Positions 20,889 to 40,731 of a DNA stretch of 64,000 nucleotides are shown here, piece by piece; position 1 is the stretch's first letter, and the number at the start of each line of letters is the position of its first letter. Below the pieces are notes generated by a model that did no database searches, was not told where the DNA came from, and saw only the letters and a program-made list of their open reading frames with translations. The stretch is from assembly GCA_017450165.1 (NCBI GenBank), contig JAFSWO010000105.1:13131-77130 (forward strand), read 5' to 3'. The translations under genes and the position numbers were made by a program. Source of the stretch: Bacteroidales bacterium (GTDB lineage Bacteria > Bacteroidota > Bacteroidia > Bacteroidales > UBA932).

Positions 20889-20907
20889 TGCATTTACCCC
20901 CAAAAAA

Positions 20908-20944
20908 TGTAGATAGTGGTCCAGGAGCTGGACCACTATCTACA
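20908..20944. terminator. Stem-loop 2 in the convergent gap, 17-bp perfect stem reusing the same core
   Basis: The sequence is tgtagatagtggtccag gag ctggaccactatctaca, preceded by cccccaaaaaa. Confidence 0.6.
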
Positions 20945-20965
20945 TGTAGTGCGAATTCCGCAGGA

Positions 20966-22858: not shown

Positions 22859-22875
22859 AGTCTTTCCTCCGATTT

Positions 22876-24435: not shown

Positions 24436-24463
24436 GCAGTCGGCGGTTACTTGTGGCGAAAAA

Positions 24464-24500
24464 GAAGAAGTGCTGCCCCGGGATGGGGTAGCACTTCTTT
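24464..24500. terminator. Intrinsic terminator hairpin shared by the convergent frr and pilus-operon ends
   Basis: The sequence is gaagtgctgcccc ggga-t ggggtagcacttc followed by ttt. It lies in a 79-nt convergent gap. Confidence 0.7.
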
Positions 24501-24514: not shown

Positions 24515-27500
24515 TTAGTTATCATCTGCAAGATAAACGACGATAGAAGCGATACGAGTATCGCGATTGTTGCGTTTTGTTGTTCTTAGTGTTACGCTGG
24601 TTGTTGAATTATTACCAGCTGTCCAGGTGCCAACCGTACCGCTTCGATTATAGGAACCGCCACCACTTCGGACAGTAACACTCTCAGCGTAATAATTAGC
24701 CCCCGAGTAATTAATCTCAATTTTTGTAACATGACAGTCTGCCGGAGCGGTTACTGTAATGTCTGTATTATTAGGCGCTGTTGTATAAGTACCTCCAAAT
24801 GTAGGGGTGGTATTACTAAACGCCACGGTAACGCCATCTGCAGTCGTGTACGAGCGGTTGTTATTAGAATAATTGGCGCTTGTTGTGGCAACAGATATAC
24901 TAGACGGCGATCTATTGATTGTCACATCCGCAGCGTCATAATCATCGGCAGAAAGATAAACGGTGCACGGTGAGAATCTGTATGTCGTTTTTAAGGCGAT
25001 TGTATAAGTGCGCTGCGTAAGGTCAGTAGGTGTTAAAGTGTACGTGACACCATCGCTATTGAGGCTTAACAGGGCATTATCGCCGGTGTTTCCATCCGGA
25101 GTCAAACCTTCGAACCTAAGTCTTGCCGGTTCAACAACCCCATCCGCATACGTAAAGTGGAAAGAAAGGGTTCTATTCAGGCCGGTGTTGATATAGGTTC
25201 CGCTGAATCCAACATTCGAAAATTGAGCACCTTGAATGGTAATTATATTAGACTGGGCCTGTGCATAGAGCAACGGGTTCTCCGTGATATTCGCCGTAGA
25301 GAGGGTTACGGAAGCTGCGGTACCAACAACACCGGTTGCTGTGAGCGCAAGTTCAACGGCATTCGCAAAGCCATGGGTCAGGTTTGCATCAGGGATATAA
25401 TAGAGATAGGTGTTTCCACTTGAGTGTTGCAGGCCTGAAGTAACCGGAGTCTCACCGTCTGCGTAATACTGTGGCGTAAAGCCATTGAGTATCACTGTCA
25501 TAACCTGAGGAATCACACGATTGTTCGGATCCAGGCCGTTCTCCCGAGCTGTCGCGGCATCTGCGCTCAAACCCTTATCGTTCGTAGGATCCCACCAGAA
25601 AATGGAATTGCTTCTGTGGTCATAGTCCATCCGGAAGGTCAGGGTCACGTTTCCATGACGAGAAACCGTTGTCGGAGACCATTGCTGGGTCGGGAACGTG
25701 AAGAGACGCTGCGTATAGTTGTAGAAATCGTCATGGGCCATCGCATCGCTGAAATACTTGTTGTGTACGTACACGGTGCAGGCATTATTGGAAACGGTGG
25801 TCTTAAAATAGCAGTCAACATACTTCCATACGGTACCATTCTTCGTTACGGTCCCCAGTCCATCATATTCCGACTGGGTTACCGTCTTGATAAAATAGAA
25901 CGCAGGGGTTTCAACGCCGGGTACCGTCGAGGAACCATAAGTTACAGGCAGCACGTCTCCATCCGGGGTCAGACTGTAGCCGTCCGGTTCGATGGTAAAT
26001 TCCAGCGGGAAGACGGAGCGGGAAAGGCCTCGGGGAATGAGGATTCGAACAACCTCTTGTTCACCAGCACTCTGTGCAACATATTTCTGACGACAGGTTA
26101 CTTCCATTGATTGACGAGGAGAAGTTCTGATAATCACATTTCGGCTAAGTGTATTTCCATTATAAGTACCTTCCACATGGATCGTCTGCGTACGAGCCTC
26201 CGTAAAGAATCTGTCACCATCTATATAGGATTCACTCAACTCGTACATGATCTTACCCCATTTTTCAATCGTTGTATCCGCAACTTGTGCTTGCGTTGCA
26301 GGAACCCAGTTGTTCTGTTGACGGACATACGAGATTGCATTGCCACTACCGTCCTTATCTATCCATACATGGCACGTATCAGCGACCGTCTTGAAGGCCA
26401 GAATACCCTGGCTTGCCGCCTGTGCCGCCGTCAACTCCGTGAAAACGCCAGATGACTCATCCAAAGAACCCACTTTGACGATTACACGCTCATTGGCCTC
26501 CTGATTGGCATTATAGACCGTATCCTGCACATTGGTAGGAATATACCGGAACATGACGGAATCCAATTGCGGCTGTACGTAGAATTTCTCCGTGAAAGAG
26601 GTACCGATACTCGACTTACCATCGGAGATGCTGATCAGGCTCTGGAAGTTCGGGTCGCCCGTTACGGAAGCCGAGGTGGCCTTTGATGCCTTATTGATAT
26701 CCGACTCACCGGTACCTGCCTCAATATTCAACAGGTGTACTGTATAGGACTGGTTGCGGAGCAGCGGAATTGCCACGCCTTCCGTGTTGACGATATCCAA
26801 AGCGTAGTATTTTTCCGGTTCGGGATCTCCGTCATAATCATGTCTAATTGCTTTGATAATCAATCTGGTAGCACGTCGTGCCGCGGAAGGCATAGTTCGC
26901 TCGTACACAAAGAGGACATTATTTTCCGGATTCGAGCTATCCCAGTCCTGGAGATCTGCATCTCCCGGAACACCCACATCGGCATTGCCGGGGTAATAAT
27001 TATATGCCTGATTCGAGGGAGAATAACCACCATAATAAAACGGAGCTCCCGTCACAAGCGTATCGCTTTGATTCACCCGAACCAGAGGATAACGCTGGTA
27101 GTTCATCAGAAAATTCTCAAAGTAGAGCGGCGAAGTCGTATCCTCATCGCCCGGCTCTATAATGGGGTTGCCTGCTGCGTCGGTTGAGAAGGGAGCGGAC
27201 AGAATCGGTGCCACAACACCCTCCGACGGGGCATATGCCAAACCAAATTTACTGATTGTCACCAACTGGTGGTTCTTCTCCGGTTCATTTTGATACTCAA
27301 ATAATTGCGTCAGGTTACGCAGGTATACGCGGGCAAAGTTGCGCACCAGGATGATGGGGTCAGGGAACTGCCTCATTGTAGCTTCCGTTGCCACATAATC
27401 GTTCCCCACCTTGTTGACGCGGACGCCATTGGGCAGAATCACTTTCTGCCAGTAAGCATCGTTGTACTCTTCGGAGCGCTGGGAACGGATTCGGGACATC

Positions 27501-27922
27501 ACATACTCTTCCGTATCCTGGCTACCGGAAATAGGCGGACTGGTACGGACCGCCGTCGGACAGTTTGCAATGAAGTGCAGACGCAGGCGGCTGTCGCTGA
27601 TGGAGAGTTTGGCCTCGAGCGCATACACCGTTGCATTGGTACCGTCGTAATGAGCCGGAGTCGTCTCCGTTACCGTTGCCCGCACCCACTCGTTGAAGTA
27701 ACCGCTACCACCGAATACAGCAATATAGAAACCGGTTGTATCGATGGTTGGATCGTTGCCCATTACACGGGTTGCTCCTGCATCTGAGGGAATCGCCACC
27801 TTGAAAGAGAGGGTTACGCGCTCGGTATCCTTTTCCAAATCGGGGGTAGGGAACGGATCAATCCCGTGGCAGCCCGTCAAGAGCGCCAACGCTACAAACA
27901 ATATGTATCCAAATCTTTTCAT
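24515..27922 (-). CDS. Giant pilin-like lipoprotein (1135 aa), candidate pilus tip/adhesin
   Basis: Lipobox LLTGCHG. It has an N-terminal strand plus Arg site, LSFKVAIPSDAGATR. It is the last gene of the pilus operon, 4 nt after the preceding gene. Confidence 0.8.
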   Translation of the reverse strand: MKRFGYILFVALALLTGCHGIDPFPTPDLEKDTERVTLSFKVAIPSDAGATRVMGNDPTIDTTGFYIAVFGGSGYFNEWVRATVTETTPAHYDGTNATVYALEAKLSISDSRLRLHFIANCPTAVRTSPPISGSQDTEEYVMSRIRSQRSEEYNDAYWQKVILPNGVRVNKVGNDYVATEATMRQFPDPIILVRNFARVYLRNLTQLFEYQNEPEKNHQLVTISKFGLAYAPSEGVVAPILSAPFSTDAAGNPIIEPGDEDTTSPLYFENFLMNYQRYPLVRVNQSDTLVTGAPFYYGGYSPSNQAYNYYPGNADVGVPGDADLQDWDSSNPENNVLFVYERTMPSAARRATRLIIKAIRHDYDGDPEPEKYYALDIVNTEGVAIPLLRNQSYTVHLLNIEAGTGESDINKASKATSASVTGDPNFQSLISISDGKSSIGTSFTEKFYVQPQLDSVMFRYIPTNVQDTVYNANQEANERVIVKVGSLDESSGVFTELTAAQAASQGILAFKTVADTCHVWIDKDGSGNAISYVRQQNNWVPATQAQVADTTIEKWGKIMYELSESYIDGDRFFTEARTQTIHVEGTYNGNTLSRNVIIRTSPRQSMEVTCRQKYVAQSAGEQEVVRILIPRGLSRSVFPLEFTIEPDGYSLTPDGDVLPVTYGSSTVPGVETPAFYFIKTVTQSEYDGLGTVTKNGTVWKYVDCYFKTTVSNNACTVYVHNKYFSDAMAHDDFYNYTQRLFTFPTQQWSPTTVSRHGNVTLTFRMDYDHRSNSIFWWDPTNDKGLSADAATARENGLDPNNRVIPQVMTVILNGFTPQYYADGETPVTSGLQHSSGNTYLYYIPDANLTHGFANAVELALTATGVVGTAASVTLSTANITENPLLYAQAQSNIITIQGAQFSNVGFSGTYINTGLNRTLSFHFTYADGVVEPARLRFEGLTPDGNTGDNALLSLNSDGVTYTLTPTDLTQRTYTIALKTTYRFSPCTVYLSADDYDAADVTINRSPSSISVATTSANYSNNNRSYTTADGVTVAFSNTTPTFGGTYTTAPNNTDITVTAPADCHVTKIEINYSGANYYAESVTVRSGGGSYNRSGTVGTWTAGNNSTTSVTLRTTKRNNRDTRIASIVVYLADDN

Positions 27923-27926
27923 GGCG

Positions 27927-30446
27927 TTACTTCTTTCTTACAGTTGCCCGGTCCTCATCACCCCAGGTAAAGGTAGTCTTGGTTACTCTCTCGTTGGTTG
28001 TTCCCTCCCAATACCATTCATCATACACACAACGGACATAGTTAGTGCCAGAAGTGCTGGTATTGGATGACAATGAAGCGCTGCTATTTCCGGCAGGAAC
28101 TGTAACGTACCCGTTATTACTCCAATAATTAGTACTATTGCCCGTATCACTACCTAACAGACGGGGAATCAGGTTGTCCTTTGTCAACTGCGCCATATAC
28201 GTAATCTCCGCCACAGTCGGCAAGCGCCAGCGACCTGCAGGATAACCGTCTTCCTGATACGATGCGCAGCGACGCTGAGCATTTGCGAAAGTCATCGGTT
28301 GGGTCGCACCGAATGACGATGCGATTCTGAATTTTGGCGCGATAAAATAACTATACTCAGCGCCTCCTGCGGGATAGTAATAGGTTATCGGGCGGGTTTC
28401 ATTTTGAACAGAAGCTTTGCTCTGACTCCATGTCTGTCCTAGATTATCGATGGTTCGGCTTCTCGGATCGCCTAACATATAGGTTGAAACCGCACCGGTA
28501 GTCGGAAGAACCGAAGTCTCGATGACATACATATTTGTATTCGTATTGCTCGAATTGCTTAAATCAGAAGGAGCAGACCCCAAATAATAATCCCATCCGT
28601 TCTGCTGGGAAGAGCTTGTCCAACTGCCGTCGACATTAATTGTCTGATTATACCAGGAACCGCTGGTATTCGTCCCGTTATCCTGTCCTCCATTGACATA
28701 GCCATAGCCACAATTCGAAGTACCGCCACTATTCTCCTCCGGCTTGATAATGATAGAGGGCCGCTGCTCAATAATAACGTCAGTGAAATAGAGGTTTGCC
28801 CCTTCTCCCTCATGACGCAACCGCATACGGATCGTATAAGGCGCCACGTCATAGTTATTGGCAGACATGTCCCGCTTCAGTGGATGGTTGAAGGTGACGC
28901 TGTCGCGACCATGAACGATCACGGACCAACCGTCAGAATCGGCCGCCTGGTTATACGTAAACGAATGAGAGGCGGGTGCCGGTGTCGCACTGCTATAGTT
29001 CGGACGCACCGCTATGATCTGGTTGCTGAGGGTCGTGGTGAAAGGATTGTAAATTCTCGGGTTGACACCGACGTAATTTGCATCTATTTCATGCGAAGAG
29101 GTGTACACGCCGCTGGCCACCGTAAAACCTACCACCTCCACATCGTGGCTCGATTGAATCGGGATGATAAGATTATCCTCGTTGTACAAGACATACTCGG
29201 TGGTCGGTACGTTCAAATAACGGGCCGTAATGACCGTTGCCGGCACAGAGGTGATACTGGTGATGTTCTCCTCGGTCACCTCTTCTATCGCGCCACACCA
29301 GGGGGCAATACCATAGTGGATGGTTACCTGCGGCGGATCAGCCTGCTCGGTACCCAGAATCTGCACGTCGATAGAAATGTGGTACCAGTGGTTGCGAAGC
29401 AGTTCATTGCCATGGAACGGAATCTTGTAGTAATACTTACGGGTCGTGTTGCCGTATTGCCAGGGAATGATGAGCTTCATGTACGGCTCCATGGACGATC
29501 CTGTCTCCCAGGACATCGGATAGGAATAGAAGGGCTTAATTTGTCCGATATGCCCCTCAAATACGCTGTCAATCGGCGTGTAAACCGGAACCTTGACCGA
29601 AACCGTAGCGTTGTTGATTTCCCGGCTGCGGCTGGTGGAGTCACCCGTAGCGTACAGTATAAAATCGTGATACTGCGAATAAACCACCGGTTCACCCGAG
29701 CCGAACGTCGCAGAGGCCGTTACCGGCACCGGCTCAGGCTCCGCTCCGAGTGAAGCTTTCCGCATGGGGTACACCATGTAGACAGACATATTTTTTTTGT
29801 CCGGTATCCACTGGTTGTCCTCGTCACCGACGGCCTGATCGGCCACCGTGACGGCGAAGGTCACTTTTGCTGCCACGCGGGCCATTCCCACGGTTGCATA
29901 AACCGGCGTCGAACCCTGCGCATTACCCAGCGTAAGCTGCATCTCGCCGGTCATCACGAAATCGGATTGAATATAGTTCCAATAGGAGTTTTCACCGACC
30001 GTCACGGAATTCTCCCACGTGGGGGCCGGAAGGAGCGAGCCCTTGATATCACTGATATTACGACTGCCGGGGGTTCCCTGATAGGTTCCGCCATTGTTGG
30101 TGAAGTTCGCCACTACGAACAATCCGCAGTGCGCACCTGAACCGGTCGTACCGAAGATGCTTTCAATGTCTGTCGGGTTGGTCTGAAGCTGTACCAAGGT
30201 ACCGTTTCGACGGACTTGAAGAACCTCCTTCGTGATCTCTCCGGTAGTTTCATTATAGAAAAATATGTCGATTCTCTCGGAGATGACGTTCTCATTCAGA
30301 GCCTCTTCTCCTTCCTTGGTGGCACGAGTCTCCGGATCAGCAATAACGAGGTTCAGGACAATTCCATCGATATACTCGGGAACATCCGGGACGCAGCCGA
30401 CAAAGGCCAGCAGTGCCAATGCAAATATGATGAGTTTAGTTCGCAT
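27927..30446 (-). CDS. Large pilin-like lipoprotein (839 aa) with a C-terminal FISUMP/DUF1566-like lectin-fold domain
   Basis: Lipobox AFVGC, with LNLVIADPETR at the N-terminus. The C-terminus has RCASYQEDGYPAGRWRLPTVAEITYMAQL...NYVRCVYDEWYW. Confidence 0.8.
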   Translation of the reverse strand: MRTKLIIFALALLAFVGCVPDVPEYIDGIVLNLVIADPETRATKEGEEALNENVISERIDIFFYNETTGEITKEVLQVRRNGTLVQLQTNPTDIESIFGTTGSGAHCGLFVVANFTNNGGTYQGTPGSRNISDIKGSLLPAPTWENSVTVGENSYWNYIQSDFVMTGEMQLTLGNAQGSTPVYATVGMARVAAKVTFAVTVADQAVGDEDNQWIPDKKNMSVYMVYPMRKASLGAEPEPVPVTASATFGSGEPVVYSQYHDFILYATGDSTSRSREINNATVSVKVPVYTPIDSVFEGHIGQIKPFYSYPMSWETGSSMEPYMKLIIPWQYGNTTRKYYYKIPFHGNELLRNHWYHISIDVQILGTEQADPPQVTIHYGIAPWCGAIEEVTEENITSITSVPATVITARYLNVPTTEYVLYNEDNLIIPIQSSHDVEVVGFTVASGVYTSSHEIDANYVGVNPRIYNPFTTTLSNQIIAVRPNYSSATPAPASHSFTYNQAADSDGWSVIVHGRDSVTFNHPLKRDMSANNYDVAPYTIRMRLRHEGEGANLYFTDVIIEQRPSIIIKPEENSGGTSNCGYGYVNGGQDNGTNTSGSWYNQTINVDGSWTSSSQQNGWDYYLGSAPSDLSNSSNTNTNMYVIETSVLPTTGAVSTYMLGDPRSRTIDNLGQTWSQSKASVQNETRPITYYYPAGGAEYSYFIAPKFRIASSFGATQPMTFANAQRRCASYQEDGYPAGRWRLPTVAEITYMAQLTKDNLIPRLLGSDTGNSTNYWSNNGYVTVPAGNSSASLSSNTSTSGTNYVRCVYDEWYWEGTTNERVTKTTFTWGDEDRATVRKK

Positions 30447-31917
30447 CCAATACTAGTCTAATGTTTTTCCGGTTGAATTCAGAGTTTGCATCGTGCCATT
30501 CACCGTTGAAGTAGATGGCCACGTTGAAAAAGAGTGTCTGGGTGGTAGTCGGAGAGAGATCGTTATTTGGCTTCACGGTGAATTCCACTTTACCGTTTTC
30601 CGTGAAGGCGTCAATCTCGCCGGAAGTCGGTTCGATCTCGAAGTATTGTGCCGCAGAGAGCGGATAAGCCGTTATTTGCCAACGACCGGAGGTCGGAGCC
30701 TCTATATAGAAACGGCCCTTCATTACCTCGGTATTGGTCCTGAATCGCATTGTCTTAGCCGACCATTCTTCAGTCGTCGGCTCCGTGGAATATGATTCTG
30801 TGGTACTGTTGTAGCGATAAAATGCCAACACACCATCCTTGAACATACCGCTTCGCGCGGAGATGGAGTGATCGGAGTAATCCCAGTCATACGCCTCATA
30901 TTCCCAAGGCAGCACGCGCGTATAGATCTCGATGGAACTTCTCTTGAACTGAAGCATCAGAGAGTATTTCGTACCGGCATCCATACCTACGAAGTTGTCT
31001 TTGAAGAACTTCTGGCGGGAAAGGACAACGGATGCGGTCAGGTCGGCCGACAGATTGTCATTGTTGTCAAGCACATTGTATTCTACGACCAGGCGGGCGT
31101 TCGTATCCAGCTCCATATAGGTCTGGGGCCACATCAGGATATAATCCGTCAGATTCAGAATCGTTTCCTGATTGATGTAAACACTTCCTGCCGGATCTGC
31201 CGACTGGAAAAGCACCGTGCTCACGGAGTCGATATTGGCCGTGGCAACCTGTACGGTGGCGGCGGAGTAGTCAATCGTAGCGCTGCGCTTGTTCTTCATT
31301 CCCACGAGGGTGACTCTCTTAAGATAGACGGTGTTGCCGGAGGTATTCTGAACCTCGAGGTTCATCGCCGTGAAGAGGTGATGATGCTTCAGGCTGATGG
31401 GGGTGTTCGCCTTGTGGGTTTGTGCGGGAACCGTGATCACGTCGGAATACATGAAGTCGAACAGCGGCGTGGAAGCGTCCATCACCTTCTGGGGAATGGT
31501 CAGGACCTGCGTGCTTGCATTGTAAGAGGTTCCGGCCCCGAAGAATTCTTCCTCGTACATGCCGAGCGTGTTATCATAGTGGAGCCAGGAGAAGAACTTG
31601 TGGGTACCGTCGGCCGTCCAGGGATAGGTCCGGCTCGAACCGTAGTTCCAGACAGGACTGCCCGCGAAGACCAGCGAGTCATTGATGTAATACGGATTCT
31701 CTGCGCTCATCCAGGAGACATTCCCCGAGAATCCGGTGAGAACGTCAAAGACGCGCAACTTGTTGCCGGTGCTGTTGAGCGCAGTGGAGTCCATCATGGC
31801 TCGGGTAGGGCCGGCGTTCACTGCAGAGAAGGAGATGGTTCCCTCGCCGAAGTAATCCTTGCCGCAGGAGACTACCGACAGCACAACAACGATCAGGTAT
31901 AGTACTTTTCTTCTCAT
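30436..31917 (-). CDS. Fimbrillin-family (type V pilin-like) lipoprotein, 493 aa
   Basis: The start is trimmed to the ATG at 31917 (MRRKVLYLIVVVLSVVSC); the track start is a TTG. It contains TISFSAVNAGPTR and LKHHHLFTAMNLEV. Confidence 0.8.
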   Translation of the reverse strand: MRRKVLYLIVVVLSVVSCGKDYFGEGTISFSAVNAGPTRAMMDSTALNSTGNKLRVFDVLTGFSGNVSWMSAENPYYINDSLVFAGSPVWNYGSSRTYPWTADGTHKFFSWLHYDNTLGMYEEEFFGAGTSYNASTQVLTIPQKVMDASTPLFDFMYSDVITVPAQTHKANTPISLKHHHLFTAMNLEVQNTSGNTVYLKRVTLVGMKNKRSATIDYSAATVQVATANIDSVSTVLFQSADPAGSVYINQETILNLTDYILMWPQTYMELDTNARLVVEYNVLDNNDNLSADLTASVVLSRQKFFKDNFVGMDAGTKYSLMLQFKRSSIEIYTRVLPWEYEAYDWDYSDHSISARSGMFKDGVLAFYRYNSTTESYSTEPTTEEWSAKTMRFRTNTEVMKGRFYIEAPTSGRWQITAYPLSAAQYFEIEPTSGEIDAFTENGKVEFTVKPNNDLSPTTTQTLFFNVAIYFNGEWHDANSEFNRKNIRLVLDAN

Positions 31918-31926
31918 TATTCTCAA

Positions 31927-32901
31927 TTACTCAACCGTAACACCAGCTTCCGCGGCCGTCCAGACGTCCGTGGTGGCGGTAAAGGTGATATTGTCGTTCA
32001 GTCCGATGCTGAGTGTGTAAATATATTTTTTACCGGGTTCCCATTGCGTAATCGTACCACGAAGCGGAATGGTAACCGGAGCGTTTTCAAATGTAAAGGT
32101 AGCAGAATTTAACGTTTGAGCAATACTATAGCTCACGGTAAGTGACGCTGTAGCGTCAACTGCTGAAGAAAGTGTCTGCGGCAAAAAGAGATATGTGCAG
32201 ACCGTATCGATATCCGGTTCGTTCTGGGCGTTATAGGTCAGCGCCAGGGACGCGTTGGACAGGAATGTAAAATCATGGAGACTCTCCTGGTTGGACCAGG
32301 TGCCGTCGGCAAAGTCCCCGACAGTATATATATTATTGAGGGACAAGCCCTTGAGGGACAGATTCACCGTGCTGTTGGCGTTGTTATAGTAATCTGCCGC
32401 TTTCACGCGGAATACCACCTGCGAAAGTGCGTGTGAGAAAGTCAAAGGAACACTTTCCGGATGCGTGGAGCAGTCTGCAACCGTCGCGGTTGCGTAGCAG
32501 AGGTCCGTCGTCATCTCGGTGGTGGATTGTACGGTGTAATCAGTGGCGGTAACGCCGTTTGTCTGATCGATGCTCAGGCCGGTTGCGCTAGCCGGACTGT
32601 ATGCTTTGAATGTGAGGGAGCCGCCCAGGGGCCAGTACTGGTCGGTAGATGTTGCCCAGAGGGCTATGGTAGAATTGTATGAGGCTTCAAGACGCTCAAA
32701 ATACGGTGCGGCACCATCGTGAAAAGCACTCACGACGAAATGCTCCGTTTCAGGATAGACCGTGCCTGTAATGATAGCCCTCGTTGCTTTGGAAGCTACC
32801 GGCGCAAAGGAGATCTTACTGGAGGTGATCTCCGATATCGTGCAGGCCGAAAGCAGGAATGCGGCCGCAACGACAGTCAGGTATGCGTGTCTTGTTTTCA
32901 T
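31927..32901 (-). CDS. Fimbrillin-family type V pilin lipoprotein
   Basis: Lipobox LLSAC. It contains KISFAPVASKATR, FKAYSPAS, LTFSHALSQVVFRV and C-terminal ITFTATTDVW. Confidence 0.85.
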   Translation of the reverse strand: MKTRHAYLTVVAAAFLLSACTISEITSSKISFAPVASKATRAIITGTVYPETEHFVVSAFHDGAAPYFERLEASYNSTIALWATSTDQYWPLGGSLTFKAYSPASATGLSIDQTNGVTATDYTVQSTTEMTTDLCYATATVADCSTHPESVPLTFSHALSQVVFRVKAADYYNNANSTVNLSLKGLSLNNIYTVGDFADGTWSNQESLHDFTFLSNASLALTYNAQNEPDIDTVCTYLFLPQTLSSAVDATASLTVSYSIAQTLNSATFTFENAPVTIPLRGTITQWEPGKKYIYTLSIGLNDNITFTATTDVWTAAEAGVTVE

Positions 32902-32909
32902 ACGATTCT

Positions 32910-33947
32910 CTATTCGTCCAGAATAATTTCACGGGTCTCGACCCAGTCTGTGACAGCCAGGCTTAAAACGCTGCTTTCCAGACCGACAGCGAGTCGGAAC
33001 GTGTATTTGTAATGAGGAAGCCACTTCTGGCAGCAGTTCCAAATGGGAAGATGTGCTTCACCGGGGACCTCGTAGGTCAGGTCTTGAAGGACATTTCCGG
33101 TTGTCAGGTCCGTCAACGTGGAATGCACGACGGTACGGTGCCATTCGTCGATCCGGGCCGTTTCCGGCAGGAGTTGCGGAATCAGCAGCAGCGGATCCAG
33201 CGGAGTGAGGACCGGCGTGTTGTGGTTGTCGCACTCCAGCGCCAGGCCGGAGGGTTTGTTGAAAATGGTGTAGGTGGTCACGGAAGGGTTGGTTATCCAG
33301 CCCATAGGTTCCTGGGTAAAGTGACCTTCGCAGATCACGCCCGAAATCTTTACGGAATCGAGCACCACGGTCATTTGGTCGGATTGCAGCAGGTTCTCGG
33401 AAACCAGCAGTTTGGAGTATTGCTTCAAGGGGCGGACCTTGATGCAGACCTGCGTGAGCGCGTGATCGAACACGATCGGAACCACGGCGGAGTGCAGTTT
33501 GCAATTCTCGGTGGTTTTCGCGTAGCAGAGGTCTACCTGCGCCTCTTCGAACGAAGAGATGGACCAATCGGTTTCAACGCCCTTTTCGGGGCTGATTCTA
33601 ATTTGCGGAATAGCGGGAGAAGCGGCGTAGAAGACGACATCGCCATCGTGCGGCCAGAGAAACTCCTCCGTAGGACGCCACCAGGAATCTTTTGCGTCGA
33701 ATTCAATTCTCGCTCCCGACATGTAGATATTATCCCAGTCGTTATCAAGTCCTTGAGGGTAATGGACCGCCTCCACGACAAACGGAATATCCTGCGGATA
33801 GCTTGTCGAGCTGATGATGCACTTGGTGTGCGAAGCCACAGCGGAGAACACGATCTTGTCTCCCGGCATCGGATAGCGGGAATTGATCGTGCACGATGCG
33901 GTCAGCAGTGCAACATTCAACAGGATGATTGCGAGTCTTTTACCCAT
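32910..33947 (-). CDS. Fimbrillin-family type V pilin lipoprotein
   Basis: The start is trimmed to MGKRLAIILLNVALLTASC. It contains KIVFSAVASHTK, FYAASPA, IVFDHALTQVCIKV and C-terminal LAVTDWVE. Confidence 0.85.
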   Translation of the reverse strand: MGKRLAIILLNVALLTASCTINSRYPMPGDKIVFSAVASHTKCIISSTSYPQDIPFVVEAVHYPQGLDNDWDNIYMSGARIEFDAKDSWWRPTEEFLWPHDGDVVFYAASPAIPQIRISPEKGVETDWSISSFEEAQVDLCYAKTTENCKLHSAVVPIVFDHALTQVCIKVRPLKQYSKLLVSENLLQSDQMTVVLDSVKISGVICEGHFTQEPMGWITNPSVTTYTIFNKPSGLALECDNHNTPVLTPLDPLLLIPQLLPETARIDEWHRTVVHSTLTDLTTGNVLQDLTYEVPGEAHLPIWNCCQKWLPHYKYTFRLAVGLESSVLSLAVTDWVETREIILDE

Positions 33948-33963
33948 AACACTATCCCCTTCC

Positions 33964-33997
33964 CGGACGGGGTGCGCGGGGAATTGCACCCCGTCCG
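33964..33997 (-). promoter_or_regulatory. Perfect 12-bp GC-rich stem-loop inside the pilus operon, a candidate attenuator or RNA-stabilising/processing structure
   Basis: The sequence is cggacggggtgc gcggggaatt gcaccccgtccg. It sits in the only sizeable intergenic gap (88 nt) of the operon, and no U-tract follows it on the minus strand. Confidence 0.55.
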
Positions 33998-34035
33998 TTG
34001 GGAGATGATTTATATAAACAATCGATTCTCAGGCA

Positions 34036-35121
34036 TTACAGCAGTACTGCGTTGACGGCGTCGATGGTGATACCGGAGATATCCTCGGTATCCCAGCCTT
34101 CAACAAGGGGTGAGAACATGATCTCGTTGTTGGCACCGTCAAGGGAGATGCCGATATGGAAGACATAACGCTTGCCGTTCTGGAACTTGTTGGCGCTTAT
34201 CTTGCCATAGATGGGGATGTTGACGGTCTGGGTAGGAGTTGCAGGATAGTCGAAGCCGTTGATGGTATAAGCGGCGATGCTGTATTGGACCTCGATGACC
34301 TGATCTGCTGCAGTGCCGGTGACAACGTTGTCGGGAATGACTACAAATGCTGCGCTGTTGTCGATTGATGCCACGAAGGATGCCCCGGAGAGATAACTCT
34401 CAGTCTCCTGAAGGACCTCGCTGCCCTGGAAGGAAACGAAGTCTGCGGTGGTGTTGATGTTGCTCCATGCGCCCTTGCCGATGGTCGTGCTCTTGGTGTA
34501 GTCACCGCTGGTGTGCAGGTTCTTGAAGGTAACCTTCTCGATGGAGATCTTGCCCTTCAGACTCTCGGTGGTGGTGGCGTCGAAAGCGGTAACTGCGATC
34601 TGGCTGGTGATGTGCTTGAACACAAGGTTTACCGTGGGCTTCGAGGTTGCCATCTGGGCGAGGGTGGTAGCTACGAGGGGGTCGATCTGGCTGCCGATAG
34701 CGGTACCGAGGCTCACACCGGTCAAGTTGATTCCCTTGGGCTCGGTTGCAGAGTCGAAGGTGGCGTTGAGGCTGCCGGGATAGTATGCGTAGAAGTCTAC
34801 GGTACCGGTAGCAGGCCAGAGGTATGTACCTGTAGTAGCCTTCCAGTCACCGCCCTGATTGGAGATGTTCACATCGTCCATAAGGGGAGTGGCGTAGTTG
34901 TAGGAACTTCCGTCAAGAGCTGCAAATGCATACACGTTGAAGGACTCCGTGGTGGGGAAAGCAAGCTGCTCGGGGCTGTTGCTGTCCGGGAGGATAAGTG
35001 CCTTCGTGGTGAGGGCATTGGGAGCGAAGTCGATAGGAGAATTCGCGGGAACGGTGAATTCGTTCTTGGAGCAGGCTGCAAATGCGAGAACTGCTGCTGC
35101 GATGATGAATACTTTTTTCAT
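34036..35121 (-). CDS. Fimbrillin-family type V pilin lipoprotein, stalk-type candidate
   Basis: Lipobox AFAACS. It contains PIDFAPNALTTK, FYAYYPG and LVFKHITSQIAV. Confidence 0.85.
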   Translation of the reverse strand: MKKVFIIAAAVLAFAACSKNEFTVPANSPIDFAPNALTTKALILPDSNSPEQLAFPTTESFNVYAFAALDGSSYNYATPLMDDVNISNQGGDWKATTGTYLWPATGTVDFYAYYPGSLNATFDSATEPKGINLTGVSLGTAIGSQIDPLVATTLAQMATSKPTVNLVFKHITSQIAVTAFDATTTESLKGKISIEKVTFKNLHTSGDYTKSTTIGKGAWSNINTTADFVSFQGSEVLQETESYLSGASFVASIDNSAAFVVIPDNVVTGTAADQVIEVQYSIAAYTINGFDYPATPTQTVNIPIYGKISANKFQNGKRYVFHIGISLDGANNEIMFSPLVEGWDTEDISGITIDAVNAVLL

Positions 35122-35143
35122 TTTGTTTGAGAATATTATGCTA

Positions 35144-36178
35144 TTACTTAACTGTGATTTGGGTGGGCTGAGGATCTGCGGCTACCCAGTCAACCATGGT
35201 AGGATTGAAGTAAATCTTGTTGAGGTCGATGACGATGTTGTAGTTGTAAATCTTGTTCTGCTCCCATGCGGTGACATCCGTGGTGCGGAGGTCAACGGTC
35301 ACGGTCTTCGAACCCAGATCGACGCCGCTCTTCTCGAGGGAGTAGGTGATGTCGAACTGCTGGGTTGCTGCGACAAGAGACTGGGGAACCATCATGTTGG
35401 CATTGCCGAACGCGGCGAAATCAGCAGAGTAGTTGGGAGCGACGACATCGCTGCCCTCGCTGTCATAATCAGCGTCAACCGTTGCGCTGCCCCAAACCGG
35501 CGTGTCGTCGGTGACGGTGAGGGTACCGGTGGAGTAAGCGTTGAAAACGATGCTGTTCACGGTAACGGTGTAGTCATCGAGACCGTCGGCCTTCTTGACA
35601 AGGAACTTCACCTGGGAAAGAGCGTGGTGGAAAATCATGTTGACACCGGTGAGGGTGCTGGTTGTGATCTCGGAGGTATAGGTGCTCTGGTTGTCAGAAA
35701 GATCCTTCTGGGTGGTTGCCCACATAAGGTCGGTCTGTGCTGCAGTCGTGCCGGCCGCAACATAGTTTGTGACGGTCATGACCTTGGTTCCTGGCGCATA
35801 GGCGACCTTGGAAGCCTCGGCGTAAGGTGAAAATCCCGTGAAGGTAAGGCTACCGGAAAGGGGCCAGTAATAAACGCTGGCGGGTTCCCAGATGAGATCG
35901 GTGCTGTTGTAGGAAATTTCAACCTTATCCATATAAGCCTGGCCGTCAGCGCTGTTGGCAGCCCACGTTTTACCATCGGTAAGAGCATAGCAGAAAACGC
36001 CGAAAGTAGGATCGGTAGTCTTGTAGACAGTACCGCTGAGAGGAGTTCTCGTGGCCGGGCCGGACACGGTGTTGAAGTTGATCTCGCGAGCTTTCCGGCT
36101 CTGCGGATCCAGCGTGTTGTGCGAGCAGGATGCGAGTGCTAAGACTGCAATGGCTGCGATTGCGAAAAACTTTTTCAT
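35144..36178 (-). CDS. Fimbrillin-family type V pilin lipoprotein, stalk-type candidate
   Basis: The start is trimmed to MKKFFAIAAIAVLALASCS. It contains EINFNTVSGPATR, FTGFSPY, MIFHHALSQVKFLV and C-terminal IYFNPTMVDWV. Confidence 0.85.
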   Translation of the reverse strand: MKKFFAIAAIAVLALASCSHNTLDPQSRKAREINFNTVSGPATRTPLSGTVYKTTDPTFGVFCYALTDGKTWAANSADGQAYMDKVEISYNSTDLIWEPASVYYWPLSGSLTFTGFSPYAEASKVAYAPGTKVMTVTNYVAAGTTAAQTDLMWATTQKDLSDNQSTYTSEITTSTLTGVNMIFHHALSQVKFLVKKADGLDDYTVTVNSIVFNAYSTGTLTVTDDTPVWGSATVDADYDSEGSDVVAPNYSADFAAFGNANMMVPQSLVAATQQFDITYSLEKSGVDLGSKTVTVDLRTTDVTAWEQNKIYNYNIVIDLNKIYFNPTMVDWVAADPQPTQITVK

Positions 36179-36211
36179 AATGGAATTATTGTTTGTTACT
36201 TTTTCCATGAA

Positions 36212-37309
36212 TTAGTCGAGAATGTTGATGGTCTGGACATCCACCTCTACCCAGTCGGTAACCGTCGGGTTGAAGGTGATTTCATTGAGCTTGAAGCAAA
36301 GGGTGTAGTTGTACTTCTTACCTGCTTCCCAAGCTGCGATAGCCTGAGCGGGATCGAGTTCACTGCCGGCCTCTTTCACTGCCATCCAAGGAGCGGCAAC
36401 GGTAACGGTACCGGTGATAGGAGCATACGTCTTCTGCTTCATGGTGTACTTGATGGTGATCGTCGTACCTTCGAGAACGTCGGCCGTTGCAGGATCATCA
36501 GCGTTCGCTGCCTGAGGGATCATGACGAGTGCGCGGCCATAGAGATCAGCTGCTGCATCGTTAGCTGCATAGTTCACAACCTGGGTCGTGTTGAAGTAAG
36601 TCAGATTCTCAGTCTGAGCTGCATTGTCTGCCCAAGCAATGGCATCGTTGGCGTAAGTGACATCACCGGAGAGGTCAATGTTGTTGATAGCGATGCTGTC
36701 GACTTTGAATTCAACCTCATCCAGCGTGTAGTCATAGTCGGTACGAACGCGGAACTGAATCTGCGAAAGAGCGTGCTTGAAAACCAGCGGAAGTGCATCT
36801 GCACGACGTGCGCCCTCGTTGGTTGCGAACATCAGGTCGGTAGAATCCTTGCCGGTAACGGTGTAATCTGCAATCGTTGCCTGCGGCTTCTTGTTGGTAG
36901 CATCCCAGCCGGTGGTGGTGGGAGCTACGGTCGACGGGTGGACGGCGAGGAAGCTGATCTTGCCGGTGAACGGCCAATAGTAGTAGTTGTCAGCATTACG
37001 CCATGCCTCGGCACGGCTGTCACGGCCGCCTGTCCAGGAGATGGTCAGGTTGGTCATGAAATTGGAAGCATCGTCCGTTACAAATTCGGAGAAGTCCCCT
37101 TCCGGAGACTGCCAGCCCCAAACGTTGAAGGTGTTGTCGGTGCCGTAGGTGGTACCAGAGATGATCGCGTCATTGGCGCGGGTTGCCAGACGAGTTACGG
37201 CGTTGAAACCGATTTCGTTGTCCCGAGTCTGATTGACAGGCTCGATGTTGCTGCAGGATGCGAACACTGCGAGTGTTGCCGCTGCGAGAATCAATTGAGT
37301 TTTTTTCAT
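36212..37309 (-). CDS. Fimbrillin-family type V pilin lipoprotein, stalk-type candidate
   Basis: Lipobox VFASCS. It contains EIGFNAVTRLATR, FLAVHPS, LVFKHALSQIQFRV and C-terminal ITFNPTVTDWVE. Confidence 0.85.
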   Translation of the reverse strand: MKKTQLILAAATLAVFASCSNIEPVNQTRDNEIGFNAVTRLATRANDAIISGTTYGTDNTFNVWGWQSPEGDFSEFVTDDASNFMTNLTISWTGGRDSRAEAWRNADNYYYWPFTGKISFLAVHPSTVAPTTTGWDATNKKPQATIADYTVTGKDSTDLMFATNEGARRADALPLVFKHALSQIQFRVRTDYDYTLDEVEFKVDSIAINNIDLSGDVTYANDAIAWADNAAQTENLTYFNTTQVVNYAANDAAADLYGRALVMIPQAANADDPATADVLEGTTITIKYTMKQKTYAPITGTVTVAAPWMAVKEAGSELDPAQAIAAWEAGKKYNYTLCFKLNEITFNPTVTDWVEVDVQTINILD

Positions 37310-37349
37310 GATGTTTGATTGTTTATAAAAATGGTTAATAGTTTCGTTT

Positions 37350-38369
37350 TTAAATGTTTATCGGGACATCCACCACTGTCCAGTCGTCCACGCCGGGCTG
37401 GAAGCCACCGCCTCCACCGGGGGTCGTAGGAACAGGGATGGTGATATCTTCTTCAATATGGATTACCTGATTCTTGATAGCTTCTTCCGTGTAGAATTCG
37501 TCGGTGATGTCACGGCGCCAGATAATGGTGTCGCCGCCCGTGGTCTTCAGGGTGAGCCACAGGACGCTTTCCACATTCGGGTTCTTTCCGAAGGTATTGA
37601 ACGTACCTACGACGATATCGTTGTTGTCATCGTCGGTACCGGGACCCATCTCGAACATCAGGGTGACGTCGGTATTGGTCTTACCTTCCTCGGTGGGCAG
37701 GCCAAGCATGTTGGATGCAATCTGGCCGGTGAGGAGTGCGCGTGCGGAAGATAGGTACTGACGATTCTTGAGGCGGACCGAGATGTGCCAGGTCTGGATG
37801 ATGCTCTCGGCATCGGTCTCGATCACCTGCTCTTCCGTAGTGTTCAGGACGGTGACGATCTCGCGGCTCACGAAGAGGTGGTCCGGTTCGTAAATCACCT
37901 TACCCTCCTGCACCTTCTGCAGAGCGACGGACCAAATGTCCGTCTCAGGATCGTCCTCGAGCAGCGTCTGACCATAGTGGATAGCCGCCAGGAGGCTAGA
38001 CTTCAGTGCGGAAGACACCTCGTTGGTGTAAGCCTCGATCGTATTGTAGTCGCGGTCGTTGCGGACGAGGGTAGCCTCGGTATCGAAGTTGTAACCGATG
38101 AACTTGTACTGTCCCGGAGGAAGGGCGATTCGACCGCCGCCTGCAGGCAGGTAGCTCTCGGTGACGAGTTCGTTGGTGTTGATGTCGAAGAACATCACGC
38201 GCATCATCTCCGGAGTCGGCAGGTTCTGGATCTTACCATTGACCTTGACGTTCAGATTGATACGGATCCTGAGGTCCAGCGTAGCGCTGCCGTACTCAAG
38301 CTCGCGCCGCTCGCAGCCTACGAGGACTGTGAGAAGAACAGCAAGAATTATGAGGATGCGCTTCTTCAT
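37350..38369 (-). CDS. Pilus anchor candidate (FimB/Mfa2-like or DUF5119-type lipoprotein)
   Basis: Lipobox VLVGCE. It lacks the strand + T[RK] maturation motif and the C-terminal xFxPxVxDW motif that the pilins have. It sits directly upstream of the stalk-type genes. Its ATG overlaps the upstream stop (TAATG). Confidence 0.6.
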   Translation of the reverse strand: MKKRILIILAVLLTVLVGCERRELEYGSATLDLRIRINLNVKVNGKIQNLPTPEMMRVMFFDINTNELVTESYLPAGGGRIALPPGQYKFIGYNFDTEATLVRNDRDYNTIEAYTNEVSSALKSSLLAAIHYGQTLLEDDPETDIWSVALQKVQEGKVIYEPDHLFVSREIVTVLNTTEEQVIETDAESIIQTWHISVRLKNRQYLSSARALLTGQIASNMLGLPTEEGKTNTDVTLMFEMGPGTDDDNNDIVVGTFNTFGKNPNVESVLWLTLKTTGGDTIIWRRDITDEFYTEEAIKNQVIHIEEDITIPVPTTPGGGGGFQPGVDDWTVVDVPINI

Positions 38370-40330
38370 TACTGGACCTTAACTTTTTTGTTGTAGTGGA
38401 TCAGGTACCGCAGCGACACCTTTGCGTCGGTGACACCGAAGTAGGTGAGTTTTCCACTGTATTGGTAAACGAGATGCTCGTTGTTGGAGCGTCCCACGTA
38501 GTATCTGTACTGGGTAAAGAGCGGACCGCCGCCCACAGCGAAGTCGAGGCTCCAGTCGTGGCCGAGGGTAAGGCCGTAGCCGATGCCGAGGGTACCGAGG
38601 ATCTCTTCTCCCTGATAACCGCGGCCATTGCGCTCGAAGTCATAGTAGCCTGCGCCCAGAGAAGCGTAAGCATACCAACCGTCAAGCAGTTCGCGATTTG
38701 CTTTGGGCTTGAACGGATTTGCGAAGGTACCGCCGGGATACCAGCGGGCACCGAGGTCGGCATGCAGCAGCTCGGCGCAATCTGCATTGCTGTTCCAAGC
38801 GCGCCAAGGTGCGGTTGCCATATAGTTTGCGAACACGCTGAAGTGCTGTCCGATAGGAACTTCAACACCGATGTTGAGCGGAACGCTGTGGAAACCGGTG
38901 AAGACCGTAGCGGACTCATACAGCAGGTTGTTGGAGATCGCGAAGAGCGGACGGCGCTCCTTGGTGTAAACCTCCGTTGCGGTGGTGCCGGCGGTGTCGG
39001 TTGCAGCAACCGCGTCGGCGTCGGTCACCGTGATGGCGATGGAGTCAGTTGCGGCAACGGCGGTGGTGTCGGTCTGAGGGTAGAGAAGACCCGGAACCAG
39101 CGTATCGACCGGATTCACCGCTGCAACCGTATCTACGGCCTTAACGGCAGTGCTGTCCTCGTTCGCGAGCGCGCGCTCCATAGTATCGCGAGCGTGCGCG
39201 AGGGTATCGGGTAACGCAGGCGCGGCGGTATCAACACTCTCGTACTCAGGGACCACCGATGCGAAACGGGTCTGCGGGAGGACATCCTCCAGGATGCGGT
39301 TCCACGCAGCGTTCTGGCGGAGGGCAGCCTCTTTTGCCTGAGCGCTCAGGTTGGGATTATCAATCGTCTTGAGAAGCTCATATTTCTCGATGGCGGTAAG
39401 GTTGTCGGCATTCTTGACGCTCTCACGAAGTTCATCCCAGGCCTCACCCTGCGACTCAACAACGATCAAGCCACTGAGTTTCGGATACTTAGATTCGATG
39501 TACTGCTTCAAAGCATCACCACGGCGCTGAGCTATCGCCTTGTTGAGGGCCACGGGGCCATCGATGGAGGAACCGGAGATGATTCTCAGTTTGGTCAGAC
39601 GGTCAGCGTTGCGGCCGCTCAGGAATTCGTCGAGGTCGGCGAGCACCTGTGCGTTGTCAGCGAACGTTGCATCAACCTCTGCGGAGTTCAGCGGGAACAG
39701 GATGTTGTAGCGGTCCTGCGATTCTTCAGTGCTCGGAGCAATCTGCTTGAGCGAAACCTCTGCGTAACGGAAGTACTTGAAGAAGTTGCGGTAAAGCAGA
39801 GAGAAAGCCGGCTGCTGACGAAGCTGGGCCTCTTTCTCGTCAGAAGTGATGTCCTTGTCAAGGATGGCAAGGAGCTTGGTGCGGCTCGTCTCATCCAGGC
39901 GCTCGTCGGAAACGACCGCTTCGCGGAGGTCGTCCCATGCCTCAGCGTTCGGGTTCATAAAGACGCGGCCCCAGAGCTTCGGATACTTGGCGAGGAGGTA
40001 ATCACGAAGAGCAGCCGAACGCTTCTCGGAGAGATACTGGTTGTAGTAGACATTGCCTTCCGGGGAGGAGTAAGAAATGATCTCGAGGGCGAGGCTGCTG
40101 TCTTCAGCGCAACGAGCGGCAATTTCTTCTGCAGCTGCGAGCGCATCAGCATTGTTCAGGTACGCCGCGTTGACCGACCACTTGTCCACGGGGAAGAACA
40201 CGCGAGCTGCGGAGTCCTGTGCGAGAGCGTTGGCGCGCGTAAAGAAAAACGCGACCAGGACGAACAAAAGGCGCACTGCGAGCTTTGCAGCCGCGTTTAC
40301 CGCCATGTGGGTTTTGTTGGTCCTGATCAT
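38369..40330 (-). CDS. Fusion protein: 2 x OmpA-like 'SPEG' module, an Ala/Thr/Asp-rich linker and a DUF3575-like outer-membrane beta-barrel
   Basis: It has a signal peptide ending ..ANALAQ. The SPEG modules are LEIISYSSPEGNVYYNQYLSEKRSAALRDYL and LRIISGSSIDGPVALNKAIAQRRGDALKQYI, each followed by EAWD(D/E)LRE. The C-terminal barrel has NNLLYESATVF..LNIGVEVPIG..GWYAYASLGAGYYDF and ends ..SLRY. Confidence 0.75.
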   Translation of the reverse strand: MIRTNKTHMAVNAAAKLAVRLLFVLVAFFFTRANALAQDSAARVFFPVDKWSVNAAYLNNADALAAAEEIAARCAEDSSLALEIISYSSPEGNVYYNQYLSEKRSAALRDYLLAKYPKLWGRVFMNPNAEAWDDLREAVVSDERLDETSRTKLLAILDKDITSDEKEAQLRQQPAFSLLYRNFFKYFRYAEVSLKQIAPSTEESQDRYNILFPLNSAEVDATFADNAQVLADLDEFLSGRNADRLTKLRIISGSSIDGPVALNKAIAQRRGDALKQYIESKYPKLSGLIVVESQGEAWDELRESVKNADNLTAIEKYELLKTIDNPNLSAQAKEAALRQNAAWNRILEDVLPQTRFASVVPEYESVDTAAPALPDTLAHARDTMERALANEDSTAVKAVDTVAAVNPVDTLVPGLLYPQTDTTAVAATDSIAITVTDADAVAATDTAGTTATEVYTKERRPLFAISNNLLYESATVFTGFHSVPLNIGVEVPIGQHFSVFANYMATAPWRAWNSNADCAELLHADLGARWYPGGTFANPFKPKANRELLDGWYAYASLGAGYYDFERNGRGYQGEEILGTLGIGYGLTLGHDWSLDFAVGGGPLFTQYRYYVGRSNNEHLVYQYSGKLTYFGVTDAKVSLRYLIHYNKKVKVQ

Positions 40331-40406
40331 GTTTCAGTTTTTTCTATGTCGATTTTCCGCCCTGCTTATGCGCGCATATATACGCGTACACGAGCAAAAA
40401 TCGGGG

Positions 40407-40414
40407 CAAAGGTA
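40407..40414 (-). promoter_or_regulatory. Candidate -7 box (TACCTTTG) for the pilus operon
   Basis: The plus strand reads caaaggta. It lies 77 nt upstream of the ATG at 40330. Confidence 0.45.
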
Positions 40415-40417
40415 ATG

Positions 40418-40631
40418 CTTTTTTTGAATCGTGAAACTTTTTTTGAATATTTTTTAAAATTAATTTTTGATTCTTGCTGTTTTTGGCCGATAAAAGCACT
40501 AAAATCAGGGGTAAAATAAAATTCTATTGCGGATTCATAAAAAGTTGATGATAATGGCAAAAATGGGGGAGGCGGCAAAAGCACCCCCTAGAGGGCCCCA
40601 GGACGTGAAAAAATCAAGATTCATAAAAAAA
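40418..40631. promoter_or_regulatory. Four copies of an AT-rich 12-13-nt motif, CTTTTT(T/A)TGAAT, arranged as two nested inverted pairs
   Basis: ctttttttgaat occurs at 40418..40429 and 40437..40448. The reverse orientation attcataaaaag occurs at 40533..40544 and attcataaaaaaa at 40619..40631. Confidence 0.4.
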
Positions 40632-40676
40632 TCGCAAAAAAGTGAAAAAATATTTACGATTTTAAGTTATTTGTTT

Positions 40677-40684
40677 TACCTTTG
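40677..40684 (+). promoter_or_regulatory. Candidate -7 box (TACCTTTG) for the pilin-like / 7TM-AraC pair
   Basis: It lies 48 nt upstream of the ATG at 40732. It is the same 8-mer as the divergent promoter box. Confidence 0.45.
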
Positions 40685-40731
40685 TTGACAGAAACAGAAC
40701 ACAATTTCGCGCACACCTATATATATTATAT

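Follow-up and report, generated by a model that had tools for sequence, protein, structure and literature searches.

A ten-gene operon of an uncultured rumen Bacteroidales bacterium very probably encodes a type V pilus

A 64-kb stretch of contig JAFSWO010000105.1 (hereafter the window) carries on its minus strand ten consecutive open reading frames (ORFs), occupying positions 24515-40330, which very probably encode a type V pilus of the FimA/Mfa class in an uncultured rumen Bacteroidales bacterium. The genes are named P10 to P1 in the order in which they are transcribed (Table 1). An earlier note on this DNA, made from the sequence, had proposed a pilus of the same type, and this reading is backed by matches of the small subunits to the Pfam family Mfa_like_1, by the membership of P2 in the FimD equivalog family, by the alignment of the P3 profile to the small fimbrillins and by a fold model of P1. 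Together, the hidden Markov model and structure searches support a pilin module in eight of the products (P1–P8), as had been expected.

The ten genes form one compact unit. Neighbouring ORFs are separated by −11 to +40 nt, with the sole exception of an 88-nt gap between P6 and P5, and the unit is closed by a strong intrinsic terminator (−23.1 kcal/mol, z = −5.5; none of 200 shuffled sequences folded equally well). All ten of the predicted minus-strand pilus genes are present and tightly spaced, and the lengths of 345 and 493 residues given previously for P5 and P3 match ATG starts at 33947 and 31917. A GTG extension of P5 to 33989 is regarded as spurious because it runs through the hairpin that lies between P6 and P5.

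Table 1. Positions in the window of the ten operon genes, the associated control elements and the divergent gene pair.
Feature	Position	Strand	Description
443-aa regulator	41820-43151	plus	Membrane AraC-family regulator; HTH_18 (E 4.6e-15) and HTH_AraC (Pfam)
362-aa lipoprotein	40732-41820	plus	Fimbrillin-like; Mfa_like_1, 28.6 bits against a cut-off of 27
Divergent promoter region (putative)	40331-40731		400 bp, AT-rich
P10	38369-40330	minus	653 aa; two OmpA-like modules fused to a DUF3575 barrel; first gene
P9	37350-38369	minus	339 aa; DUF5119 lipoprotein; anchor/terminator candidate
P8	36212-37309	minus	365-aa fimbrillin; stalk candidate
P7	35144-36178	minus	344-aa fimbrillin; stalk candidate
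P6	34036-35121	minus	361-aa fimbrillin; stalk candidate; last gene before the hairpin
Hairpin	~33951-34006	minus	Inner 12-bp stem at 33965-33996; in the 88-nt P6–P5 gap; no U-tract
P5	32910-33947	minus	345-aa fimbrillin; proposed minor/adaptor pilin
P4	31927-32901	minus	324-aa fimbrillin; proposed minor/adaptor pilin
P3	30436-31917	minus	493 aa; fimbrillin module and C-terminal domain; proposed adaptor/accessory pilin
P2	27927-30446	minus	839 aa; FimD-family tip adhesin
P1	24515-27922	minus	1135 aa; pilin module and beta-sandwich chain; proposed distal/tip adhesin
Intrinsic terminator	24459-24497	minus	14-bp stem with one mismatch, then UUCUUUUU; just past the P1 stop codon

Twelve related loci were found in a search that covered one genome per species, all of them in metagenome-assembled genomes (MAGs) of Bacteroidales or Bacteroidia from the ruminant gut (sheep, yak, deer and others). 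Four of these (L001, L002, L003 and L005) have the complete ten-gene layout, with 10 of 10 genes matched by tblastn, and the P3-P2-P1 trio is syntenic in all 12. In L008, where P1 is 43% identical to that of the window, an OmpA/DUF3575 fusion and a DUF5119 gene are followed by five ORFs of ~340–430 residues and then by P3-P2-P1, a layout read from gene count and Pfam matches in which one of the five middle ORFs is confirmed as a fimbrillin by Pfam. P3 and P2 have 100% identical counterparts, IJS91_06990 and IJS91_06985, in a Bacteroidales MAG, and the public records that name the products call them hypothetical proteins.

P4–P8 are a single paralogous set of small fimbrillins with a mutual identity of 24–33%. 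Four match Mfa_like_1 above its cut-off (P4, E 2.9e-26; P8, E 5.1e-24; P6, E 4.3e-20; P5, E 7.6e-11). The fifth, P7, has no Pfam match and is 29–33% identical to P8 and P4 over its full length (BLAST E 1e-25). Each paralogue has a one-to-one orthologue in the related operons. P7 is 40% identical to its counterpart in L001, the window's closest relative (L001 5585-6697), where the neighbouring products are 70–93% identical, and this difference looks like the allelic replacement of a single pilin gene inside the operon. The P7 of L002 is 82% identical to the window copy.

The C-termini of the small fimbrillins carry a motif of the ...F.P.V.[DE]W type in P8 (ITFNPTVTDW), P7 (IYFNPTMVDW), P6 (IMFSPLVEGW) and P4 (ITFTATTDVW), and a partial form of it in P5 (SLAVTDW). 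The stricter form (I/L)xFx(P/A)xVxDW had been assigned to the genes at 36212, 35144, 32910 and 31927. It is exact only for the first of these (P8); those at 35144 and 31927 (P7 and P4) fit a looser form, and the gene at 32910 (P5) has the shortened ending given above. The gene at 34036 (P6), which was absent from that list, also fits the looser form.

A lipobox cysteine is present in P1–P9 and in the 362-residue protein that is encoded divergently upstream. In P1–P8 it is followed, 21–34 residues further on, by the basic residue of a T-[K/R] pair, within the span of 15–40 residues that the earlier note had given for all eight pilin-like products. The strings quoted there (FNAVTRLATR, NTVSGPATR, APNALTTK, SAVASHTK, APVASKATR, SAVNAGPTR, VIADPETR and IPSDAGATR) are all found in the products. 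Among the small fimbrillins, P8 combines the lipobox FASC with TR at residues 43-44, P6 FAAC with TK at 39-40, P5 TASC with TK at 41-42, and P4 LSAC with TR at 40-41. P1 has the lipobox LTGC and the pair T51-R52, with threonine in 56 of 57 homologues and lysine or arginine in all 57. The same positions are kept in the P2 family (T40 in 53 of 57 homologues, K/R41 in 57 of 57) and in the P3 family (T38 in 59 of 60, K/R39 in 60 of 60). In the window's own proteins the basic residue is R41 in P2, R39 in P3 and R44 in P7. This conserved pair, in the loop after the first strand of each of the eight pilins, is the candidate cleavage site.

The three distal products carry further domains after the pilin module, so that P3, P2 and P1 would have no free C-terminal donor strand. 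In P3, a profile built from 60 homologues aligns over residues 1-341 to the profile of P4–P8 (hhalign 98.7%, E 2e-16, 313 columns), and this fimbrillin module is followed by an extra C-terminal domain of ~150 residues. About one third of the P3 homologues bear a precomputed PF13149 assignment and one is named as a fimbrillin family protein. The P3 gene lies directly upstream of the FimD-like P2, which is the position of FimC. P2 itself matches the NCBIfam equivalog NF052322 (FimD_tip_adhes) with 315.5 bits against a cut-off of 170, over model positions 9-664 of 664, and is ~170 residues longer than the model. A pilin module (approximately residues 1-380) is followed by a C-terminal extension of ~460 residues, in which residues 714-807 weakly match a DUF1566/Lcl_C-like domain (E 8e-5, under the Pfam cut-off). 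When the P2 family profile was compared with the PDB, only type V pilins were matched, at marginal E-values of 1e-3 to 4e-2 (Mfa4, 4rdb and 5dhm; 3r4r; FimA, 4q98).

P1 gave no match in the local Pfam or NCBIfam libraries, and PDB sequence searches returned nothing for P1, as a single sequence or as a profile, or for P3. The full-length AlphaFold2 model of P1 is all-beta, with a predicted local distance difference test score (pLDDT) of 85.6. A Foldseek search with the whole protein returned generic arrays of immunoglobulin (Ig) domains only (alpha-2-macroglobulin, mastigoneme and integrin), which are uninformative on the pilin question, and residues 1-430 were therefore modelled alone (pLDDT 81.6; predicted template modelling score, pTM, 0.79). 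With this second model the 12 best PDB matches were all type V pilins, with E-values of 5e-11 to 5e-5, the next match having E > 2e-3. They include 3liu, 3r4r, 4jg5, Mfa1 (5nf3), FimA1 (6jzk), PG_0181 (4rdb), 3pay and Mfa4 (5dhm). As modelled, P1 is a pilin module (~residues 33-415) joined to about five beta-sandwich domains that span ~700 residues.

A profile search placed P1 in a family of 1059 clusters (50% identity) at E ≤ 1e-3 and 544 at E ≤ 1e-30. The members are mostly metagenomic proteins of 800–1600 residues, the few names among them being 'hypothetical' or 'Ig-like domain-containing', and the homologues bear a precomputed Pfam domain, PF27397. P2 and P1, described earlier as two giant distal subunits that exceed the classical layouts, do not make the operon exceptional, P2 being a FimD equivalog and P1 a member of this extensive, uncharacterised family. 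Accessory subunits of large size are already known from type V pili, and FimD has an NCBIfam model of its own.

The distal parts of both proteins vary. P2 and its relative P0220 are near-identical over residues 1-560, differ by ~50% over 560-640 and are otherwise ~99% identical. P1 and P0002 are near-identical over residues 1-440 and unrelated over 900-1135, the region taken to be the strain-variable C-terminal head. This mosaic variation, which in P2 and P1 is confined to the distal parts, and that of P7 form the expected pattern for exposed subunits and exchangeable adhesin heads, and the head of the P1 family is, to judge from the homologues, modular. In several P1 relatives of ~1240–1270 residues, Big_2 (PF02368) and other domains replace the ~130-residue C-terminal domain of the window's protein.

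The first two genes of the operon encode proteins of other kinds. P9 matches Pfam DUF5119 (E 9.8e-24) and has the lipobox LVGC, and T-[RK] is absent from its first 80 residues, which fits the expectation for an anchor that remains lipidated. Its profile matches 5cag, an uncharacterised Bacteroides-type protein (E 6e-17), and the alignment is collinear to the C-terminal GGGG..VDxW; the C-terminal sequence GFQPGVDDW is invariant among the P9 orthologues. In P10 a signal peptide is followed by a tandem pair of OmpA-like modules (~155 residues each), a linker rich in alanine, threonine and aspartate, and a C-terminal DUF3575 outer-membrane barrel (Pfam, E 1.6e-14, residues 464-644). The OmpA match is slightly under the Pfam cut-off, and there are weak NCBIfam matches to peptidoglycan anchors of the OmpA type. 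In the earlier description of P10 as a DUF3575-like fusion with two 'SPEG' copies, the DUF3575 assignment stands and the modules are true tandem repeats (34% identity, E 3e-28), but the second 'SPEG' reads SSIDG.

The hairpin after the third fimbrillin gene had been noted before, and its folding energy shows it to be real (−35.3 kcal/mol, z = −3.2). It lies at the same place between P6 and P5 in the four related operons with the complete layout. Its stem sequence differs among them, with 3 of 15 pairs changed on both sides in the two lineages sampled. The hairpin has no Rfam match, and the Rfam and tRNA scans of the window as a whole gave no matches. We propose that it acts as an attenuator or as an mRNA-stabilising element that parts the five upstream from the five downstream genes.

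A divergent gene pair upstream of the operon (40732-43151) was overlooked in the earlier note. Its first gene encodes a ninth pilin-like product, with the lipobox FNSC, the sequence SAITR and the C-terminal sequence ITFSPSVSEW. The second encodes a regulator whose N-terminal ~260 residues are hydrophobic and probably cross the membrane several times, with HTH_18 at the C-terminus. A fimbrillin-like gene of the first kind is also found upstream of the operon in L001 and L007, and homologues of the AraC regulator lie directly upstream in L002 and L008. One or other of the pair is thus present in four related loci, and both are probably part of the system. The intergenic region between P10 and the pair would serve as the promoter region, and it contains on the minus strand a TAnnTTTG box of the Bacteroidetes type (TACCTTTG, 40407-40414). 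The G+C content of the window is 0.48 in this promoter region (40–42 kb), ~0.50–0.52 over P1–P3 and 0.56–0.60 at 16–22 kb; the distal adhesin genes are lower in G+C than the adjoining housekeeping genes (pgk, frr and pyrH-like).

A scheme for assembly can be drawn from the established FimA/Mfa1 mechanism (PMC13655056). The pilins would be exported by the Sec system, lipidated at the lipobox cysteine and transferred to the cell surface, where an Arg/Lys-specific protease would cut past the T-[K/R] pair. The cut would release the N-terminal anchor strand and open a groove, which would then receive the donor strand (the ...F.P.V.DW region) at the C-terminus of the following subunit. P8, P7 and P6 are likely to form the stalk, with P5 and P4 as minor or adaptor pilins. 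P9 would stay lipidated and give its GVDDW strand to the last stalk subunit, so anchoring and terminating the fibre. Since P3, P2 and P1 appear to have no free donor strand they are assigned distal positions, as accessory or tip adhesins that correspond to FimC-D-E by position, and in P2 and P1 the variable C-terminal part is likely to be the head that binds the ligand. The hairpin after P6 probably raises the level of barrel, anchor and stalk mRNA over that of the accessory genes. For the DUF3575 barrel with its OmpA-like modules, the probable role is that of an assembly or docking factor in the outer membrane, linked to peptidoglycan, and the divergent membrane AraC protein probably governs expression, although these last two roles are guesses from domain content and linkage.

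Several points weigh against this interpretation. The locus is known from its genes alone and its host from MAGs alone, and the ORFs that were scanned in the window include no candidate Arg/Lys-specific protease. The anchor role proposed for the DUF5119 protein follows from sequence logic and gene position. When the P1 and P2 families were compared by hhalign with the small fimbrillins, only the leader, the first strand and the cleavage site aligned, and the same was true when they were compared with P3 or with each other. An overlap limited to the N-terminus is insufficient for a claim of fold homology, and for the predicted pilin fold of P1 the evidence is therefore a single AlphaFold model, whose structural matches have moderate template modelling scores (0.3–0.58). 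Finally, P3, P2 and P1, being without donor strands, could not all share one linear tip, a difficulty that also applies to FimCDE and Mfa3-5.

Two other views of the same genes have to be considered beside that of a single type V pilus. In the first, which we consider improbable, the products are surface lipoproteins of pilin fold that do not polymerize but assemble on the outer membrane into a cell-bound complex that serves as an adhesin or binds glycans. There is a precedent in BovT and BfiT, tip-adhesin-like proteins that are periplasmic and are not incorporated in pili (bioRxiv 10.1101/2024.11.15.621889), and both the distal trio without free C-terminal donor strands and the failure to identify a protease in the window would suit such a complex. 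The small fimbrillins, however, retain the T-[K/R] site together with the C-terminal ...DW strand, and beside them an anchor-type lipoprotein without the site has been conserved. The whole set is moreover syntenic in distant relatives, as expected of the parts of one structure. In the second view, the operon encodes several alternative pili or mixed fibres, with the five small paralogues as stalks, P3, P2 and P1 as tips, and a shared anchor and barrel. Five paralogues of such low mutual identity, each with a cleavage site and a donor-type C-terminus, could be read in this way, as could the three donor-strand-less subunits, the apparent replacement of P7 between close relatives and the division of the operon in two by the hairpin. 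No internal promoters or switches were detected within the operon, however, and the one-to-one orthology of the paralogues suggests that their roles are fixed and distinct and not interchangeable. Alternative pili are a rather unlikely explanation.

Some pilus operons of gut Bacteroides diversify or switch their tip adhesin by means of a diversity-generating retroelement (DGR) or an invertible promoter; that a device of this kind acts on the tip adhesin here is very improbable. The idea of a DGR was prompted by the end of P2, a DUF1566/C-type-lectin-like domain whose fold is the one targeted by DGRs in the tip adhesins of pili, and distal P2 and P1 do vary between strains. It was rejected because the 64-kb window contains no template/variable repeat pair at all, and no repeats of at least 30 nt in it involve the 3' ends of P2 or P1. 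The variation, too, resembles block replacement and not mutagenesis at adenine sites, and neither a reverse transcriptase nor a recombinase is among the scanned ORFs. An invertible promoter was likewise rejected. The only inverted repeats in 40250-40800 are two AT-rich, low-complexity ones of 14–19 nt, neither of them convincing as a switch, and the neighbouring genes encode the fimbrillin-like protein and the AraC regulator, not a recombinase.

Within the type V pilus reading, the distal trio admits a further interpretation, which is tentative and on balance doubtful. P3-P2-P1 may be an 'extended tip' module in which P1, with its pilin module, a beta-sandwich rod of ~700 residues and an exchangeable head, acts with the FimD-type lectin-like adhesin P2, and by which the cells adhere to plant fibre or to microbial partners in the rumen. 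In that case the trio would add a new architectural class to the type V tip adhesins, and the proportion of stalk to tip subunits would be set by the internal hairpin.

Work on type V pili, the chief adhesive fibres of Bacteroidia, has been almost entirely confined to Porphyromonas gingivalis and a few gut Bacteroides. The present locus suggests that uncultured rumen Bacteroidales retain a large and stable ten-gene version of the system. P2 and P1, with their strain-variable distal parts, are adhesin candidates and offer targets for work on attachment to feed particles and microbes in the rumen, and the five stalk-type paralogues are a natural set with which to probe subunit ordering in strand-exchange assembly. 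The current picture of type V pilus function is unchanged by the locus.

The remainder of the window contains several other features. Downstream of the operon, two tandem palindromic elements of ~43 nt (ATAGTGGTCCAG...CTGGACCACTAT; families D9 and I2) are found at 20854-20948, just downstream of a minus-strand ORF of 641 residues (20966-22891), and could be read as a double terminator or as a small repeated element. After a SusC/SusD-like pair on the minus strand (12205-15390 and 10623-12194) come the genes for a Fib_succ_major/BACON protein (8409-10175) and for a BspA-type leucine-rich-repeat protein (5398-7362), and the region 5398-15390 is a separate surface/polysaccharide-utilisation-type cluster. 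A minus-strand ORF of 1112 residues at 2055-5393 has a beta-lactamase/transpeptidase-like domain in its last ~250 residues only. On the other side of the operon, in the minus-strand region 47132-49257, a second AraC-type regulator (366 residues), with a short tandem DNA repeat at 47504-47601, adjoins downstream, and overlaps the start of, the gene for an OmpA-domain protein (48163-49257).

One close comparison is with the Fim (major) pilus cluster of P. gingivalis (fimA-fimB-fimC-fimD-fimE). The two share lipoprotein pilins with an Arg/Lys site, an anchor subunit (for which P9 is the candidate here) and, after the stalk, a group of three accessory genes at the 3' end, of which the middle one here (P2) passes the FimD model; the accessory genes are strain-variable in P. 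gingivalis as well (PMC8512630). P3 and P1 matched none of the NCBIfam models, those of FimC or FimE type included, when searched at E ≤ 10, and their correspondence to FimC and FimE is therefore positional only. The present operon differs in that the anchor-type DUF5119 gene precedes the stalk genes instead of following them, in having five small fimbrillin paralogues where P. gingivalis has one FimA, in being headed by the fusion of two OmpA-like modules to DUF3575, and in its last gene, which encodes 1135 residues with a predicted beta-sandwich chain.

The Mfa (minor) pilus cluster of P. gingivalis (mfa1-mfa5) combines a stalk and an anchor with three accessory pilins, the last of which is large and multidomain, as is proposed for the present operon, and the N-terminus of P1 has the structures of Mfa1 and Mfa4 among its best fold matches. 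Mfa4 and Mfa5, which have no donor strands, are assigned to the tip (PMC13655056). The multidomain accessory pilin Mfa5 carries a von Willebrand factor A (vWA) domain and a type IX secretion system C-terminal domain (PMC8512630). An Mfa5-like identity of P1 was rejected, as no vWA or Por_Secre_tail match was obtained in Pfam (E ≤ 0.01) and the protein starts with a lipobox. For P2 the same two domains were likewise not matched (Pfam, E ≤ 0.01), and P2 also starts with a lipobox and not with a plain signal peptide.

The type V pilus operons of gut Bacteroides and Parabacteroides, catalogued from JCSG structures and in the study of DGRs cited above, have anchor and stalk genes followed at the end by tip adhesins with C-terminal lectin-like domains, an order like the one proposed here, and P1 and P9 find their best structural matches in Parabacteroides/Bacteroides proteins (3liu, 3r4r, 4jg5, 3pay and 5cag). 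Those operons differ from the present one, in which there is no DGR, integrative and conjugative element or invertible promoter (inverton), and which belongs to a rumen lineage without a cultured representative. In Bacteroides fragilis 638R, 93 pilin genes are spread over 22 operons (bioRxiv 10.1101/2024.11.15.621889), a computed average of ~4 per operon, compared with nine pilin genes and one divergent gene here. The claim that the number of subunits goes beyond the classical five-gene fim/mfa layouts is right in that it lies at the high end, but it was overstated, multi-pilin operons being common in Bacteroidales. The type of system, its processing logic and the FimD family were already known; the conserved ten-gene layout, the OmpA-like/DUF3575 first gene, the internal hairpin and the giant pilin-headed P1 are mildly unusual. 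With nine pilin-class genes, the operon is at the high end of the range for the same kind of system.

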